DNA of 46,568 nt from an uncultured Clostridia bacterium (GTDB lineage Bacteria > Bacillota > Clostridia > Christensenellales > UBA1242), in the NCBI GenBank assembly GCA_947366645.1, contig CANBAX010000001.1, positions 1-46,568 of the forward strand, written 5' to 3'. The translations under genes were made by a program, and so were the position numbers. The notes beneath the pieces are model-generated. The model saw only the letters and a list, made by a program, of their open reading frames with translations, was not told the DNA's origin and did no database searches. The stretch's first letter is position 1; every line of letters begins with the position of its first letter. Positions 12,020-28,641 of this stretch are shown piece by piece.

Positions 12020-12027
12020 CTTGATAT

Positions 12028-12356
12028 CAGTTATGCAGACAGTCGCATCGCAAGATGAGGAAAGTCCGAGCTTCAAGAGAACTGGGTGCTGGTTAACGGC
12101 CAGTGAAGGCGACTTCAAGGATAGTGCAACAGAAATAAACCGCCCGCGTTTTGCGCGAGCAAGGATGGAAAGGCAGTGTAAGAGACTACCGCTTGGTTGG
12201 TGACAACTGAGGCTCTGTAAACCCCACCTGAAGCAAGGTCAAAAAGGCATTAGGGCTTGTTCTCTCCCGCCTTTTAACGCACCGCTTGATTTAATTGGCA
12301 ACAATTAAACTAGATAGATGACTGTTTAATACAGAACTCGGCTTATAACATAACTG
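12028..12356 (+). ncRNA. rnpB: RNase P RNA (bacterial type A-like)
   Basis: GAGGAAAGTCCGAGC (12057-) and ACAGAACTCGGCTTA (12331-12345) form the conserved P4 halves, with a covarying GAG/CTC. P1 pairs CAGTTATG (12028-12035) with CATAACTG (12349-12356). A promoter lies upstream and a terminator downstream. Confidence 0.85.
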
Positions 12357-12379
12357 AAGGGCATTATGCCCTTTTTTTA
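12357..12379 (+). terminator. rho-independent terminator of rnpB
   Basis: AAGGGCA-tta-TGCCCTT followed by a T-run. Confidence 0.8.
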
Positions 12380-13943: not shown

Positions 13944-14648
13944 TTAATATTTTTCTTCCTCATCTTTCATGGTTTTTCCGAGTTTTTTAAGTGCAGTTGT
14001 TTCAATTCGTGAAATATATGAACGTGAAAGCCCTAAAATGGCTGCAACTTCACGCTGAGCAAGCGGTTTTTGGTTATCTAATCCAAAGCGGTATTTAATT
14101 ACCGCCCTTTCCACATCGGAAAGGCAATTTTCCATTGCTTTATACACCTTATCCATCATGAAATTATTTTCTACAGTATCTATAATTTCATCATCAAGAA
14201 CTACTCCAACTACCCCTTCAAGAGTAGTTTCTTCGTCCCCCTCCTTTCCTTTACATACTGCACTTAATGACACCGTATCCTTATGCTTTTTATTGGAACG
14301 AAGAAGCATGAGTATTTCATTTTGAATACAGCTTGAAGCGTAGGTACTTAGTAGCGCCCCCTTATTTGGGTCAAAACTATCTACCGCTTTTATAAGTCCG
14401 ATAGTGCCTACTGATATTAAATCGTCTGCTTCCATTGTGTTATTAAACTTCTTCACGATATGTGCAACAAGTCTTAAATTATGATTTATCAGGATATCTC
14501 TTGCACGCATATCACCCTGTTTCATCTTTTCAAGACATTCCTTTTCCTCCTCTTTCGTAAGTGGTTGTGGAAAACCTTGGGTTGTATTTACAAAAGATGT
14601 GAAAAAATATAGTTTTGAACTAAAGGTAGCCAAACTTTCAAATATCAT
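13944..14648 (-). CDS. sigK: RNA polymerase sporulation sigma factor K (pro-sigma-K), uninterrupted
   Basis: [46 protein letters not shown] closely parallels B. subtilis SigK ([46 protein letters not shown]). There is a roughly 25-aa pro-sequence and a GGAG RBS. Confidence 0.85.
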   Translation of the reverse strand: [234 protein letters not shown]

Positions 14649-14729
14649 AAATATCTCCTTATCGTAGGCGTTTACCTACTTAGGAAATATATATGTCGGA
14701 AAATGTCAAATTTTGCTTGTACATCAAAA

Positions 14730-14940
14730 TTAGGACAGACACCACTCGGAAATTTATATTTTTAATTGTCCCAATTTTAAATACAAATTTTTACGCGGAC
14801 ACGCCATGCTTTACATGGCTAACCGCTGTCCTCGCGGTTTCTCCACCTAGTCCTCTTCCAAATAAGGTGTCCTTTGGACTACGCGGGAGAAATGATACAT
14901 TTCTCTTTTTCCGCTTTCCTTGCGGAAAGTCCGCCAGTCC
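14730..14940 (+). repeat. E element copy 1 (about 211-nt structured repeat of unknown class)
   Basis: It shares TTAGGACAGACACCACTCG (5' end), CTGYCCTCGCGGTTTCTCCACCT (centre, 14826-14848) and TCCGCCAGTCC (3' end) with 27037-27224. The intervening helices differ in sequence but are hairpins in both copies. Confidence 0.8.
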
Positions 14941-15068
14941 AGATTAAAATTATTATTTGCATGCAAAGTCCCCCGTCCCCATGATGCTTGCTGACGAAGC
15001 CTTGTTTTGTTAATTTAAAGATGTCGTCTGTGTAACGCCTTACTTTGAAAAAGTAAGCAAAAAATGTA

Positions 15069-15137
15069 AGATTTCTCCGCTTTTCACCCCTAAAATGCCA
15101 AAGCATTTTTGGGGAACCCCGAACGGTCGAAATGACA
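15069..15137 (+). repeat. mosaic repeat R6: long-loop A unit
   Basis: AGATTTCTCCGC...CCCCTAAAATGC-caaa-GCATTTTTGGGG...GGTCGAAATGACA. A near-identical copy lies at 31849-31918. Confidence 0.9.
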
Positions 15138-15148
15138 GGTGAGCGTAA

Positions 15149-15171
15149 TAAAAAAGGTGCTTTATGCACCT
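15149..15171 (-). terminator. rho-independent terminator of ftsY, overlapping its stop codon
   Basis: AGGTGC-tttat-GCACCT with an A-run on the + strand (T-run on the minus strand). Confidence 0.7.
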
Positions 15172-21332: not shown

Positions 21333-21464
21333 AACATCTCCTAATTTTAAGATATTTATATCTTAGCAAATTTTTAAAGCGTTTGTAAAGAAAATTGGTG
21401 CTAATGTTAAATTCTTCTCCCAACACTATATATTGTGGTAGTATGCATGCATAATAGTACAAGA

Positions 21465-21484
21465 TAGGACAGACACCACTTGGA
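21465..21484 (+). repeat. solo E-element 5' module (TAGGACAGACACCACTTGG)
   Basis: It matches the first roughly 19 nt of both E copies and abuts cluster R7. Confidence 0.7.
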
Positions 21485-26477: not shown

Positions 26478-27035
26478 ATGGAAAAATTACTTAGTGAAAA
26501 AGAACAGTTGATTCTCGACAAACTTGTGATGTTATTTGTACTCGATAAGATGGAAATTCCCCTTACCGAGGACTCTATCTTGGACATTTGTAGTGTGAAA
26601 AACGAATGGATTAAAAACTACATGGACTGCAAAGCCATAATTCATGACCTGACTGAATCCAAACTACTCTACAAACTTGGCAACCTTGAACAAGGAAAGG
26701 AACTTTTCTCTCTTACCTATGAAGGAAGAGAATGCCTGTCCTATCTTTACAGACGGATACCTTTCTCTCTGCGTGAAAACATCTCACAATACCTTCAAAT
26801 AAATAAACTTAATGTTAAATCCTCACAAGAGTACACTGCCACTTACAACAAAAATGATGACGGCTCTTACAATGTTATTCTTAGGATTTATGAGCCTCTT
26901 ATTACCGTGCCTATGTTTGAACTTAAAATCAAAGCCCCTTCCCGTCAGTCTGCTAACGAGGCAATTCACAAGTGGAAAACTAGCGCACCTACAATTTATG
27001 AGAGTATTTATGAAAAGCTGATTAATATAGATTAA
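26478..27035 (+). CDS. DUF4364-like (PadR-like winged-helix) protein, putative
   Basis: ORF 26442..27035. The first ATG is at 26478 (MEKLLSEKEQLILDKL...). The family call is from memory only. The last roughly 85 nt are duplicated downstream. Confidence 0.5.
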   Translation: MEKLLSEKEQLILDKLVMLFVLDKMEIPLTEDSILDICSVKNEWIKNYMDCKAIIHDLTESKLLYKLGNLEQGKELFSLTYEGRECLSYLYRRIPFSLRENISQYLQINKLNVKSSQEYTATYNKNDDGSYNVILRIYEPLITVPMFELKIKAPSRQSANEAIHKWKTSAPTIYESIYEKLINID

Positions 27036-27326
27036 GTTAGGACAGACACCACTCGTCGGTCGCTCACAAATCAAAGATTTGATTCGCTGCCTCGCGGTTT
27101 CTCCACCTCCCACGGGTCCCCGAAAAACTTTTGAGTTTTTTGGGAATGGGAGTTTTCTTCCCTAAGGGGTCCTTCTGGATTTCAAGAGCGGACATAGTCC
27201 TTTTACTTTGAAATCCGCCAGTCCGCTAACGAGGCAATTCACAAGTGGAAAACAAGCGCACCTACAATTTATGAGAGTATTTATGAAAAGTTGATTAATA
27301 TAGATTAAGTTAGGACAAGCACCATT
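26952..27326 (+). repeat. tandem duplication, period 273 nt, about 1.4 copies
   Basis: 26952-27053 (gene 3' end plus TTAGGACAGACACCACT) recurs at 27225-27326 with about 6 mismatches. The first copy continues as the full E element. Confidence 0.85.
27037..27224 (+). repeat. E element copy 2 (about 188 nt)
   Basis: It starts 2 nt after the stop codon. It has the conserved 5' end, centre (27087-27108) and 3' end of copy 1, with different internal hairpins (CTCCCA...TGGGAG, GGATTTCAAAG...TTTGAAATCC). Confidence 0.8.
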
Positions 27327-27355: not shown

Positions 27356-27383
27356 AAAAAACACACCAAGTGGTGTGCTTTTT
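27356..27383 (+). terminator. rho-independent terminator
   Basis: CACACC-aagt-GGTGTG followed by CTTTTTATTTT. Confidence 0.75.
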
Positions 27384-27388
27384 ATTTT

Positions 27389-27631: not shown

Positions 27632-27716
27632 TAATGCAATTTTCCTTTGGTCGCAAGAGGCAAACCAAGCGGTAAGGTTGGAAAAATTTGTGCTAGTAAA
27701 TTTTGAGACCAATTAG
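27632..27716 (+). repeat. D module copy 1 (about 85 nt), overlapping the stop codon of the HIT-RNase H gene
   Basis: TAATGC..TTTGGTCGCAA..AAAAATTTGTGCTAGTAAATTTTGAGACCAATTAG aligns with 42143-42226. Confidence 0.75.
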
Positions 27717-28594
27717 CTTGTGTGCAACCTCAGTTTTTCTATCTCGGCACGCGCAAGTGCGTCACAGCGATTATTAAGTGCGTTATCGGCGTGTCCCTTC
27801 ACCTTATGCCACGAAACGCTATGTCTTGCGGTCTGCACTAAAAGGCGTTTCCAAAGGTCAATATTTTGCACCTCTTTTTTCCCACTTGTGTGCCAGTTAT
27901 TCTTTTGCCATGAGCCTACCCAGTCTTCAACAAACGCATTTACAACATAGGCTGAGTCGCTGTATACATCTACCTCACAAGGCTCTTTTATCTTTTCTAG
28001 CCCCATGATTACTGCCATAAGTTCCATACGATTATTTGTAGTTTCTCTTTCCCCGCCTTTCACCTCTTTTTCTTGACTTCCATATTGTAATATACCCGCC
28101 CAGCCACCAAGCCCTGGGTTGCCTGAGCAGGCACCATCTGTATACAATACTATTTTTTTCGCTTCGCCTAGGTCTTGGGATACGCTTACGCTACGATTTG
28201 GTTGAGCAGCATTAAGGCTTAATTTTTCCGCTAGTAGTTTTAAGTCATTACCTATTTTTGGATAGGTTTTATATATATCTTTTCCATCGTCTTTACGGCG
28301 TGGAAATACGTGCATATGAAAATGTGGCACCATTTCATTTACATTCATAAGATTAACGCTATCATAGCCACATTTCTCAGTAAAATGTTTAGACACGAGT
28401 TGCACGGTATTCATTACATGGGCAAGGTCAGCCTTTGGGCAGTCAATTACATTATGGCAATGTTTTTTGGGAATAACAAGAGTATGCCCCTCAATATCAT
28501 CTGCGATATCTAAAAAAGCAAGTGTGTACTCATCTTCATAGATTTTATAACTTGGAATTTCACCTTTTACGATTTTACAAAATACGCAGTCCAT
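27713..28594 (-). CDS. HIT-family hydrolase fused to ribonuclease HI
   Basis: The N-terminal half has CKIVKGEIPSYKIYEDEY...HFHMHVFPR (histidine triad). The C-terminal half has LYTDGACSGNPG...NNRMEL...YSDS...KVKGHADN..NNRCDALA (RNase HI DEDD). GAGGTG RBS before ATG 28594; the ORF track starts at 28606. Confidence 0.85.
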   Translation of the reverse strand: MDCVFCKIVKGEIPSYKIYEDEYTLAFLDIADDIEGHTLVIPKKHCHNVIDCPKADLAHVMNTVQLVSKHFTEKCGYDSVNLMNVNEMVPHFHMHVFPRRKDDGKDIYKTYPKIGNDLKLLAEKLSLNAAQPNRSVSVSQDLGEAKKIVLYTDGACSGNPGLGGWAGILQYGSQEKEVKGGERETTNNRMELMAVIMGLEKIKEPCEVDVYSDSAYVVNAFVEDWVGSWQKNNWHTSGKKEVQNIDLWKRLLVQTARHSVSWHKVKGHADNALNNRCDALARAEIEKLRLHTS

Positions 28595-28641
28595 ATTACA
28601 CCTCATAATTTTTGGAAGCCACCACCTTACAAAGTTGTTTT

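Follow-up and report, generated by a model that had tools for sequence, protein, structure and literature searches.

The BOX elements of Streptococcus pneumoniae (boxA, boxB and boxC) are structured, intergenic repeats in which conserved end modules flank a variable or optional middle; to our knowledge they encode no transposase, and we know of no account of how they spread. The attC sites of integrons conserve structure over sequence, vary in length and begin where the preceding ORF stops or immediately beside its stop codon. ERIC repeats also exist in larger versions, which derive from insertions at fixed internal points. ERIC itself is an enterobacterial, imperfect palindrome of ~127 bp that lies in either orientation in transcribed spacers, varies greatly in copy number between related species, affects mRNA decay in an orientation-dependent manner and is occasionally found within genes (PMC10969869). 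In Neisseria, the Correia (NEMIS) hairpin repeat is co-transcribed with its neighbours and its hairpin is cut by RNase III (PMC10969869). The hairpin repeats of the REP/BIME-RAYT and NTS/SRM-Ssn systems maintain their structure through compensating changes, and a dedicated enzyme reads them as single-stranded DNA (PMC11893778).

Here, we describe the E element, a two-hairpin repeat of 150-210 bases hosted by one genus of small-genome gut Clostridia, each copy of which probably belongs to a genus-specific, non-coding, structured interspersed repeat of the ERIC/BOX-like kind. Like ERIC, E is non-coding and intergenic and occurs in both orientations, with a long imperfect stem, a variable copy number and insertions at fixed points; unlike ERIC, with which it has no common sequence, it is found in a different phylum, consists of two hairpin domains and a CU-rich linker, has ends that are not inverted repeats and lies with its 5' edge flush with genes, to which it gives a stop codon. 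Like BOX, it is modular, structured and dispersed among intergenic sites, although its modules are unrelated in sequence to those of BOX and its blocks pair together with extensive compensating changes. Like Correia/NEMIS, it is a hairpin-forming repeat within the transcripts of its neighbours, which provides a possible model for an RNA-level side effect, but E lacks the true terminal inverted repeats, the TA target duplication and the IHF site of Correia.

Two copies of E lie in the window, that is, the whole stretch of 46,568 nucleotides analysed here (Table 1), which belongs to an 800-kb assembly of 102 contigs estimated to be 63% complete. An earlier note on this DNA had reported three blocks in one order at both loci, and these were recovered, all on the + strand and with a chance expectation of about zero: the 5' block TTAGGACAGACACCACTCG is exact at 14730-14748 and 27037-27055 (0 expected in 100 shuffles), the central block CCTCGCGGTTTCTCCACCT is exact at 14830-14848 and 27090-27108 (0.01 expected by shuffling) and the 3' block TCCGCCAGTCC is found at 14930-14940 and 27214-27224. 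Between the blocks the two loci align badly, with 121 identical columns between copy 1 (211 nt) and copy 2 (188 nt). All of the local hairpins listed by that note are present, with one arm misquoted (the true arms are GGATTTCAAGAG / CTTTGAAATCC), and copy 1 folds far more stably than shuffled sequence on each of the two strands (z -6.3 and -7.5). The suggested relationship to the A unit, another repeat of this genome, is not supported: it comes down to one common 9-mer (TTTCTCCGC), and the central block occurs genus-wide, with flanks that carry different repeats in other genomes.

Several other features of the window and its relatives were recorded. A-unit hairpin repeats (AGATTTCTCCGC...GGTCGAAATGACA) fill the spacer adjoining copy 1 (15069-15137) and many other spacers too; hammerhead-like cores in this unit were checked by eye and discarded. 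Spacers in the genus are generally crowded with lineage-specific repeats, and other short repeat families, e.g., units ending in CAGTGAAGG, lie to the right of the element at four loci of other species (L025, L064, L100 and L125). The window also contains a bacterial RNase P RNA of class A (12027-12361, + strand, 261 bits in Rfam) and, at 27713-28606 on the - strand, one 297-aa ORF in which an N-terminal HIT domain precedes a C-terminal RNase H domain.

Table 1. Positions of the E copies, their parts and associated sequences in the window.
Feature	Position	Strand	Basis or remark
E element copy 1; subtype with extra AT-rich hairpin and three-hairpin 3' domain	14730..14940	+	alignments
Copy 1, 5' strands of P0 and P1 (5' block, TAGGACAGACACCA...)	14731..14746	+	pairs with 14836-14849; P0 position 2 covaries from A-U to G-C
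Copy 1, optional AT-rich hairpin between P1 and P2; missing in most family members	14748..14790	+	alignments, fold
Copy 1, P2 (CGCGG / CCGC) around loop ACACG...CUAA, and P3 (CCATG CTTTA CATGG)	14794..14826	+	covariation
Copy 1, 3' strands of P1 and P0 (central block, GGTTTCTCCACCTA)	14836..14849	+	alignment, covariation
Copy 1, CU-rich linker GTCCTCTTCC, short loop, GGTG	14850..14872	+	invariant or nearly so in alignments
Copy 1, predicted 3' domain: GGACTACGCGG with 3' block CCGCCAGTCC, enclosing hairpins 14887-14905 and 14908-14928	14873..14940	+	single-sequence folds
Solo 5'-block motif (ATAGGACAGACACCACTTGG) without element body	21464..21483	+	2 mismatches to TTAGGACAGACACCACTCG
Left copy of ~103-bp direct repeat: last ~90 nt of the DUF4364 gene, stop codon, GTTAGGACA	26942..27045	+	96% identity to right copy
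E element copy 2; no AT hairpin; 44-nt hairpin (27109-27152) in the 3' strand of P0; P4/P5 at 27177-27216	27037..27224	+	alignment
Right copy of direct repeat; non-coding duplicate of the DUF4364 gene 3' end	27215..27318	+	103 bp, 96% identity
Degenerate 5'-block remnant TTAGGACAAGCACCA, overlapping the right end of the right direct repeat	27310-27324	+	sequence
Terminator of the DUF4364 gene, 3' of copy 2 and the right repeat	27356-27388		terminator reading

The secondary structure was derived from an alignment of 35 diverse copies (95 columns). The conserved blocks had been taken for single-stranded junctions; instead, the 5' block pairs with the central block to form helices P0 and P1, which close a rod of ~90 nt (P0-P3). 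P0 consists of U[A/G]GG with CC[U/C]A, and its second pair is A-U in 20 and G-C in 15 of the 35 sequences, with none broken. P1 joins AGACACCAAC to GUUGGUUUCU and includes an invariant C.U mismatch as well as distal pairs that covary. P2 (GCSG with CSGC) alternates between G-C and C-G in a ratio of 20:12, and both partners have changed in three of its five pairs; between it and hairpin P3, all seven pairs of which have changed on both sides, lies a conserved internal loop (ACACG / CUAA). Across the whole rod, 94.2% of cells are paired vs. 79.4% in shuffles, both sides have changed in 13 of 25 pairs, the covariation score was reached by none of 500 shuffles, and in slid registers pairing collapses to 32-53%. 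On the 3' side of P0, a near-invariant CU-rich linker (GUCCUCUUCC), a short loop and GGUG precede the second domain, which in the commonest subtype comprises P4, a helix of 15 bp, with P5 (GGGC-AAA-GCCC or variants) as its cap, and has 8 of 19 pairs changed on both sides.

The helices of both domains therefore covary, and the view that E is a genuine structured family rather than a decaying duplication is borne out. The helix previously drawn between GGACAG and CTGYCC fared otherwise, being perfect in only two copies of the genome and showing no compensating changes across the family. The invariant bases of P1, the fixed C.U mismatch and the internal loop exceed what a hairpin needs, which hints at a specific partner, whether a protein or a tertiary fold.

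Subfamilies gain or exchange hairpins at the periphery, in keeping with the idea of variable peripheral helices, although most of this variation concerns optional hairpins inserted at fixed points: an AT-rich one between P1 and P2 in copy 1 and, in copy 2, one of 44 nt that interrupts the 3' strand of P0. Copy 1, which is 87-92% identical to the copies on contigs C57, C15 and C29, differs from the P4/P5 subtype in that its 3' domain comprises three small hairpins; in single-sequence folds of this copy, GGACUACGCGG is predicted to pair with the 3' block and so to close the domain, and the homologous P4/P5 domain covaries in other subtypes. A short subtype was also seen (L015, on the genome's own contig C18 at 620-790, and L057, L085 and L097), in which the 5' rod is followed by one GC hairpin, a second 5'-block motif (TTTGGACAGACACCACTC) and a terminator, so that direct repeats of the element's 5' block lie on both sides of it. 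An 84-aa ORF overlapping copy 1 (14693-14947) was considered as a small protein and rejected because the indels of the family are not multiples of three.

Only two copies of E had been counted, which holds within the window and falls short of the genome: a covariance model of the 5' domain (R1) finds 10 copies there, with scores of 41.7 bits for copy 1 (14731-14859) and 25.7 bits for copy 2, and motif scans of the assembly place further copies on contigs C15 (two), C16, C18 (two), C29, C57 and C61. Many more lie elsewhere in the genus: of its 151 genomes analysed, 85 match R1 and contain 1-23 copies each. R1 is silent in 117 other genera of the order, two of them from the same family. The other 66 genomes of the genus, 100%-complete ones among them, have no match, which makes the element dispensable. 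A scan with the 5'-block pattern found it in 29 of 121 genomes of the genus at up to 16 copies each, and its control, the reversed pattern, gave almost no matches. When one genome per species was scanned across prokaryotes with the central-block pattern, all 79 loci found were in uncultured Clostridia/Christensenellales-type assemblies, such as "Candidatus Caccovivens faecavium".

The earlier note could name no matching RNA family, and comparison with Rfam 15 agrees. At the gathering threshold, the window yields only RNase P and a tRNA; in E-value mode, the best scores for copy 1 are 15-20 bits against cut-offs of 48-87, and six further element-bearing loci have no match within the element. 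A phage or plasmid origin was likewise dismissed, as phage records, plasmid records and IMG/VR contain no match to it.

The two sites in the window illustrate how the element is distributed among relatives. Copy 1 lies between ftsY, whose terminator (15155-15171) it follows, and a sporulation-type sigma factor gene (13944-14648), and copy 2 lies between the stop codon of the DUF4364 gene and the terminator of that gene. Each orthologous site is empty in 11 of 11 relatives, and in the 11 DUF4364 relatives the terminator comes directly after the stop codon. Copy 2 is 97.3% identical to a copy 5' of rpsP on contig C16, which is an unrelated locus, and in the leader of 16S rRNA the element occupies different positions in different species. 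Comparison among these genomes shows an apparent spread of the element to new intergenic sites as the genus diversified. No mobilising enzyme or donor form was found in the searches described below, and the term "mobile" refers to this comparative evidence.

Target duplications flank 4 of 87 copies and measure 42, 46, 54 and 102-103 bp, the last being that of copy 2, which also shows microhomology at both junctions (TTAGGACA and CCGYCAGTCY). In the other 83 copies, no flanking direct repeat above chance was detected at word size 11, repeats of 2-6 bp being below resolution; at word size 7, none was detected in six of the eight copies tested in the genome itself, and the other two were copy 2 and a copy at C16 with a marginal gapped match. 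No short target-site duplication of fixed length was found, the four observed being long and variable (42-103 bp). We infer that long, variable duplications together with junction microhomology fit copy-choice or template switching at hairpin-rich sequence. A diversity-generating retroelement was considered for the repeat flanking copy 2 and set aside, since the differences between the repeat copies, inspected by eye, are not adenine-specific.

The position of copy 1 raises the question of a regulatory site. The promoter region of the sigma factor gene (14688-14722, - strand) begins 7 nt past the end of copy 1, which places copy 1 upstream of that promoter region and therefore not in the leader of the gene. 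It consists of GTACAAGC at 14715-14722, GACA and CATATATA at 14688-14695, is common to 11 relatives that all lack the element, and resembles a sigma-E/K-like -10 combined with a SpoIIID-like box, conserved across the genus. The 5' block of E could itself be a SpoIIID-type site (TAGGACAGAC fits WWRRACAR-Y), in which case the element would spread regulatory boxes; SpoIIID is encoded in this genome and elsewhere in the genus, and the gene downstream of copy 1 encodes a sporulation-type sigma factor. However, SpoIIID is equally present in element-free genomes, the 5' block is constrained by its pairing with the central block and compensates at position 2, and copies adjoin 16S, tRNAs and about 40 unrelated housekeeping genes. 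In addition, the conserved box 5' of the sigma factor gene ((T)AGACAAGC / GTACAAGC) lies outside the element. We regard a SpoIIID site as very improbable.

Across about 74 non-redundant copies, the 5' block lies a median of 3 nt away from the gene on its left, and the next gene begins a median of 254 nt beyond the 5' domain. A long co-directional ORF ends at the element in 45 copies. Of these ORFs, 19 are terminated by the TAG of the element, 15 have their stop 4-9 nt ahead of it, and 4 continue into the element as far as +22 or about +40, with tails such as ...GTDTNYA. Where the 5' block starts with TGG rather than TAG (L088, L124 and L070, in other genomes), the upstream ORF runs seven codons in and ends in ...GTDTNYA or ...GTDTNCA, so that the same short peptide tail is added to unrelated proteins. 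The element has stop codons in three frames within about 45 nt, which would allow insertions that clip the 3' ends of genes to be tolerated. The genes 5' of sense copies are unrelated housekeeping genes (e.g., gyrase/topoisomerase IV, secY, ligA, argS, ftsY and ruvB), and eight copies begin 3-6 nt after the CCA end of a tRNA.

Around 20 copies have the opposite sense and lie upstream of 16S, tRNA, rpsP, fusA, rpsL or S7 genes or in a T-box leader, at 3 nt before the tRNAs; at rpsP, fusA, rpsL and the S7 gene, they adjoin the 5' side of the ribosome-binding site. The 16S leader of several species contains the element: a canonical promoter (TTGACA-17-TAGAAT) lies ~400 nt upstream, and the complement of the element ends 13 nt before the mature 16S rRNA; in the window's own genome it is at the start of this leader. 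A comparison of 16S leaders (L016, from the genome's contig C61, vs. L026, L031, L033, L039 and L105) revealed a strong TTGACA-17-TA(G/T)AAT promoter, an A/T-rich upstream region and a conserved segment, gacaattaaata...aagtcaatgtaagttatcga. One T-box leader (L034, G070:C15, ~1461-1910) carries a 256-nt antisense copy between stem I (35 bits in Rfam) and the GGTGGTACCACG antiterminator. The adjoining rpsP, fusA, tRNA and 16S genes in the genome itself had first prompted a promoter or leader reading, which took the 5' block, in its complement, for a -10 box or for a dedicated leader of highly expressed genes; it was abandoned, as most copies follow co-directional ORFs and the 16S promoter is ~400 nt away.

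These arrangements bear on whether E could be a discrete RNA. If E were a free-standing gene of ~200 nt for a small RNA, equipped with a promoter and a terminator, this would account for the high fold stability and the covariation, and A/T-rich, -10-like hexamers, seen by eye, adjoin the 3' block in several copies. Against this, the family alignment contains no conserved promoter or U-tract terminator, and a scan of copy 1 for a GC-rich hairpin with a U tract found no intrinsic terminator inside it. The 5' block starts 0-9 nt past an ORF stop or at a distance of 3-13 nt from the end of a tRNA or rRNA, too close for a promoter to fit in between; the number of copies varies widely, and the element is missing from many genomes. 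The context is also unfit for the discrete transcript that had been envisaged, E being sense in some transcripts and antisense in others, with copy 1 upstream of a neighbouring promoter. Such a gene is thus highly unlikely, and the tight fit against gene ends, where E often gives the stop codon, looks like that of a new structured-repeat family rather than a discrete RNA gene.

Most copies are nevertheless in transcribed positions, either in a 3' UTR before the terminator or in a 5' leader, so that an RNA-level role is possible. E could be a cis-acting structured RNA module selected within its transcripts as a substrate of RNase III or Mini-III or as a block to exonucleases, thereby defining or protecting RNA ends and insulating cistrons. 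Both domains covary strongly, the end of the rod lies 0-13 nt from functional RNA boundaries, the element recurs at the same place 13 nt 5' of 16S in several species within a promoter-driven transcript, and most copies sit between a stop codon and a terminator or between a promoter and a ribosome-binding site. A Mini-III-like gene, recognised by eye from an ORF translation, is present in the genus, and there is precedent in the cleavage of Correia by RNase III and in the orientation-dependent effect of ERIC on mRNA decay (PMC10969869). Yet E is found in both senses relative to transcription, copy 1 lies past the ftsY terminator and upstream of the next promoter, and the element is dispensable even in complete genomes. 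Under RNA-level selection, the sense strand, whichever it is, should show the wobble pairs. Counted on the + strand, G.U and A.C number 13 and 23 in sense copies and 2 and 13 in antisense ones, so the balance does not flip with the sense of transcription and this test gives no support for RNA-level selection. In sum, we consider a selected cis-acting module possible but rather unlikely.

The same mismatches could be read at the level of DNA, with the folded single strand as a recognition structure for a host or selfish enzyme that copies or moves the element, as in REP-RAYT, NTS-Ssn and attC-IntI. Compensating changes combined with a partly invariant stem sequence would suit a folded strand recognised by a protein, and the mismatches lean one way (A.C on the + strand, G.U on its complement) whatever the sense of transcription, but this lean is small and dominated by one position, and a near-invariant G.U at the base of P4 leans the opposite way. 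Like attC, E keeps its structure, varies in length and begins at or within a few bases of the upstream stop codon; unlike attC, its neighbours are scattered chromosomal housekeeping genes with no cassette arrays, and attC core sites (RYYYAAC / GTTRRRY) are not evident, for which reasons an integron origin was rejected. REP and NTS units measure 20-50 nt and flank the gene of their enzyme, whereas E, at 150-210 nt, is 5-6 times longer and more complex, with two domains, and neither an associated gene nor strand polarity was found for it: its orientation relative to local GC skew is 32:32, which also disposes of replication-strand polarity as such.

Nor did the search for a mobilising partner, which covered TnpB, IS110, reverse transcriptase and Y1, point to an enzyme of this kind. 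TnpB is absent from the genome itself, and IS110 from 19 genomes; the high-copy genomes G076, G062 and G106 lack both reverse transcriptase and Y1 transposase, which do occur in some low-copy ones, and Y1 is missing from most element-carrying genomes. As no Y1/RAYT, TnpB or IS110 gene tracks the element, a TnpB/IscB guide-RNA scaffold, an IS110 bridge RNA and a retroposed leader were all dropped. Inverted pairs of copies enclose only housekeeping genes and no repeat-flanked enzyme gene of the ssnA/RAYT type. Terminal inverted repeats were not found either, the complement of the 5' block being internal (the central block, ~90 nt in) and the 3' ends of the element (...CCAGTCC or ...TGATTTAGAG) having at most GGAC/GTCC in common with the 5' end. 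With no such repeats, no short fixed duplication and no cognate transposase among the families searched, E does not qualify as a classical MITE. A single-stranded DNA structure dedicated to a mobilising enzyme appears decidedly unlikely.

The reading we favour is an interspersed repeat of the ERIC/BOX type. As in those families, E is multi-copy, non-coding, intergenic, self-folding and of lineage-specific, variable copy number, and it is present or absent at orthologous sites of relatives. Each domain folds back on itself, and for this reason the element could be carried in transcripts of either sense, 16S and T-box leaders included, with little harm. It most likely would have spread by way of the folded single strand, through copy-choice or microhomology-mediated events and without a dedicated transposase, which would explain the occasional duplications of 42-103 bp. 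Effects on the stability or processing of neighbouring RNAs would then be a by-product, as with ERIC and Correia elements. Several insertions are common to multiple species and are intact and covarying, and these, together with the flush 5' edge, look like purifying selection on the element itself. With the invariant stem bases and internal loop, they exceed what a passively carried repeat would show and leave room for a functional reading. Terminators of the genus also begin 0-5 nt past stop codons, and compaction along with selection on the integrity of the element could yield this flush fit. A combined reading, in which E is a self-spreading module at RNA boundaries that spreads by transposase-free copy-choice, whose rod is cut or blocks nucleases, and which sets transcript ends and supplies stops at gene edges, seems to us unlikely; if true, E would be a mobile processing or insulator cassette common to mRNAs, tRNAs and the 16S leader.

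In summary, E is a repeat family not catalogued before in these poorly known gut Clostridia of ~1 Mb; its secondary structure has been tested, a covariance model is ready for use, and its definition guards against the annotation of such loci as novel small RNAs. The element rewrites the C-termini of genes, either through TAG as the stop codon or through tails such as ...GTDTNYA, and is also found in rRNA, tRNA and T-box leaders. It thereby offers a natural test case of how a structured repeat spreads without a recognisable transposase and of whether such repeats may gain roles in RNA processing in streamlined genomes.
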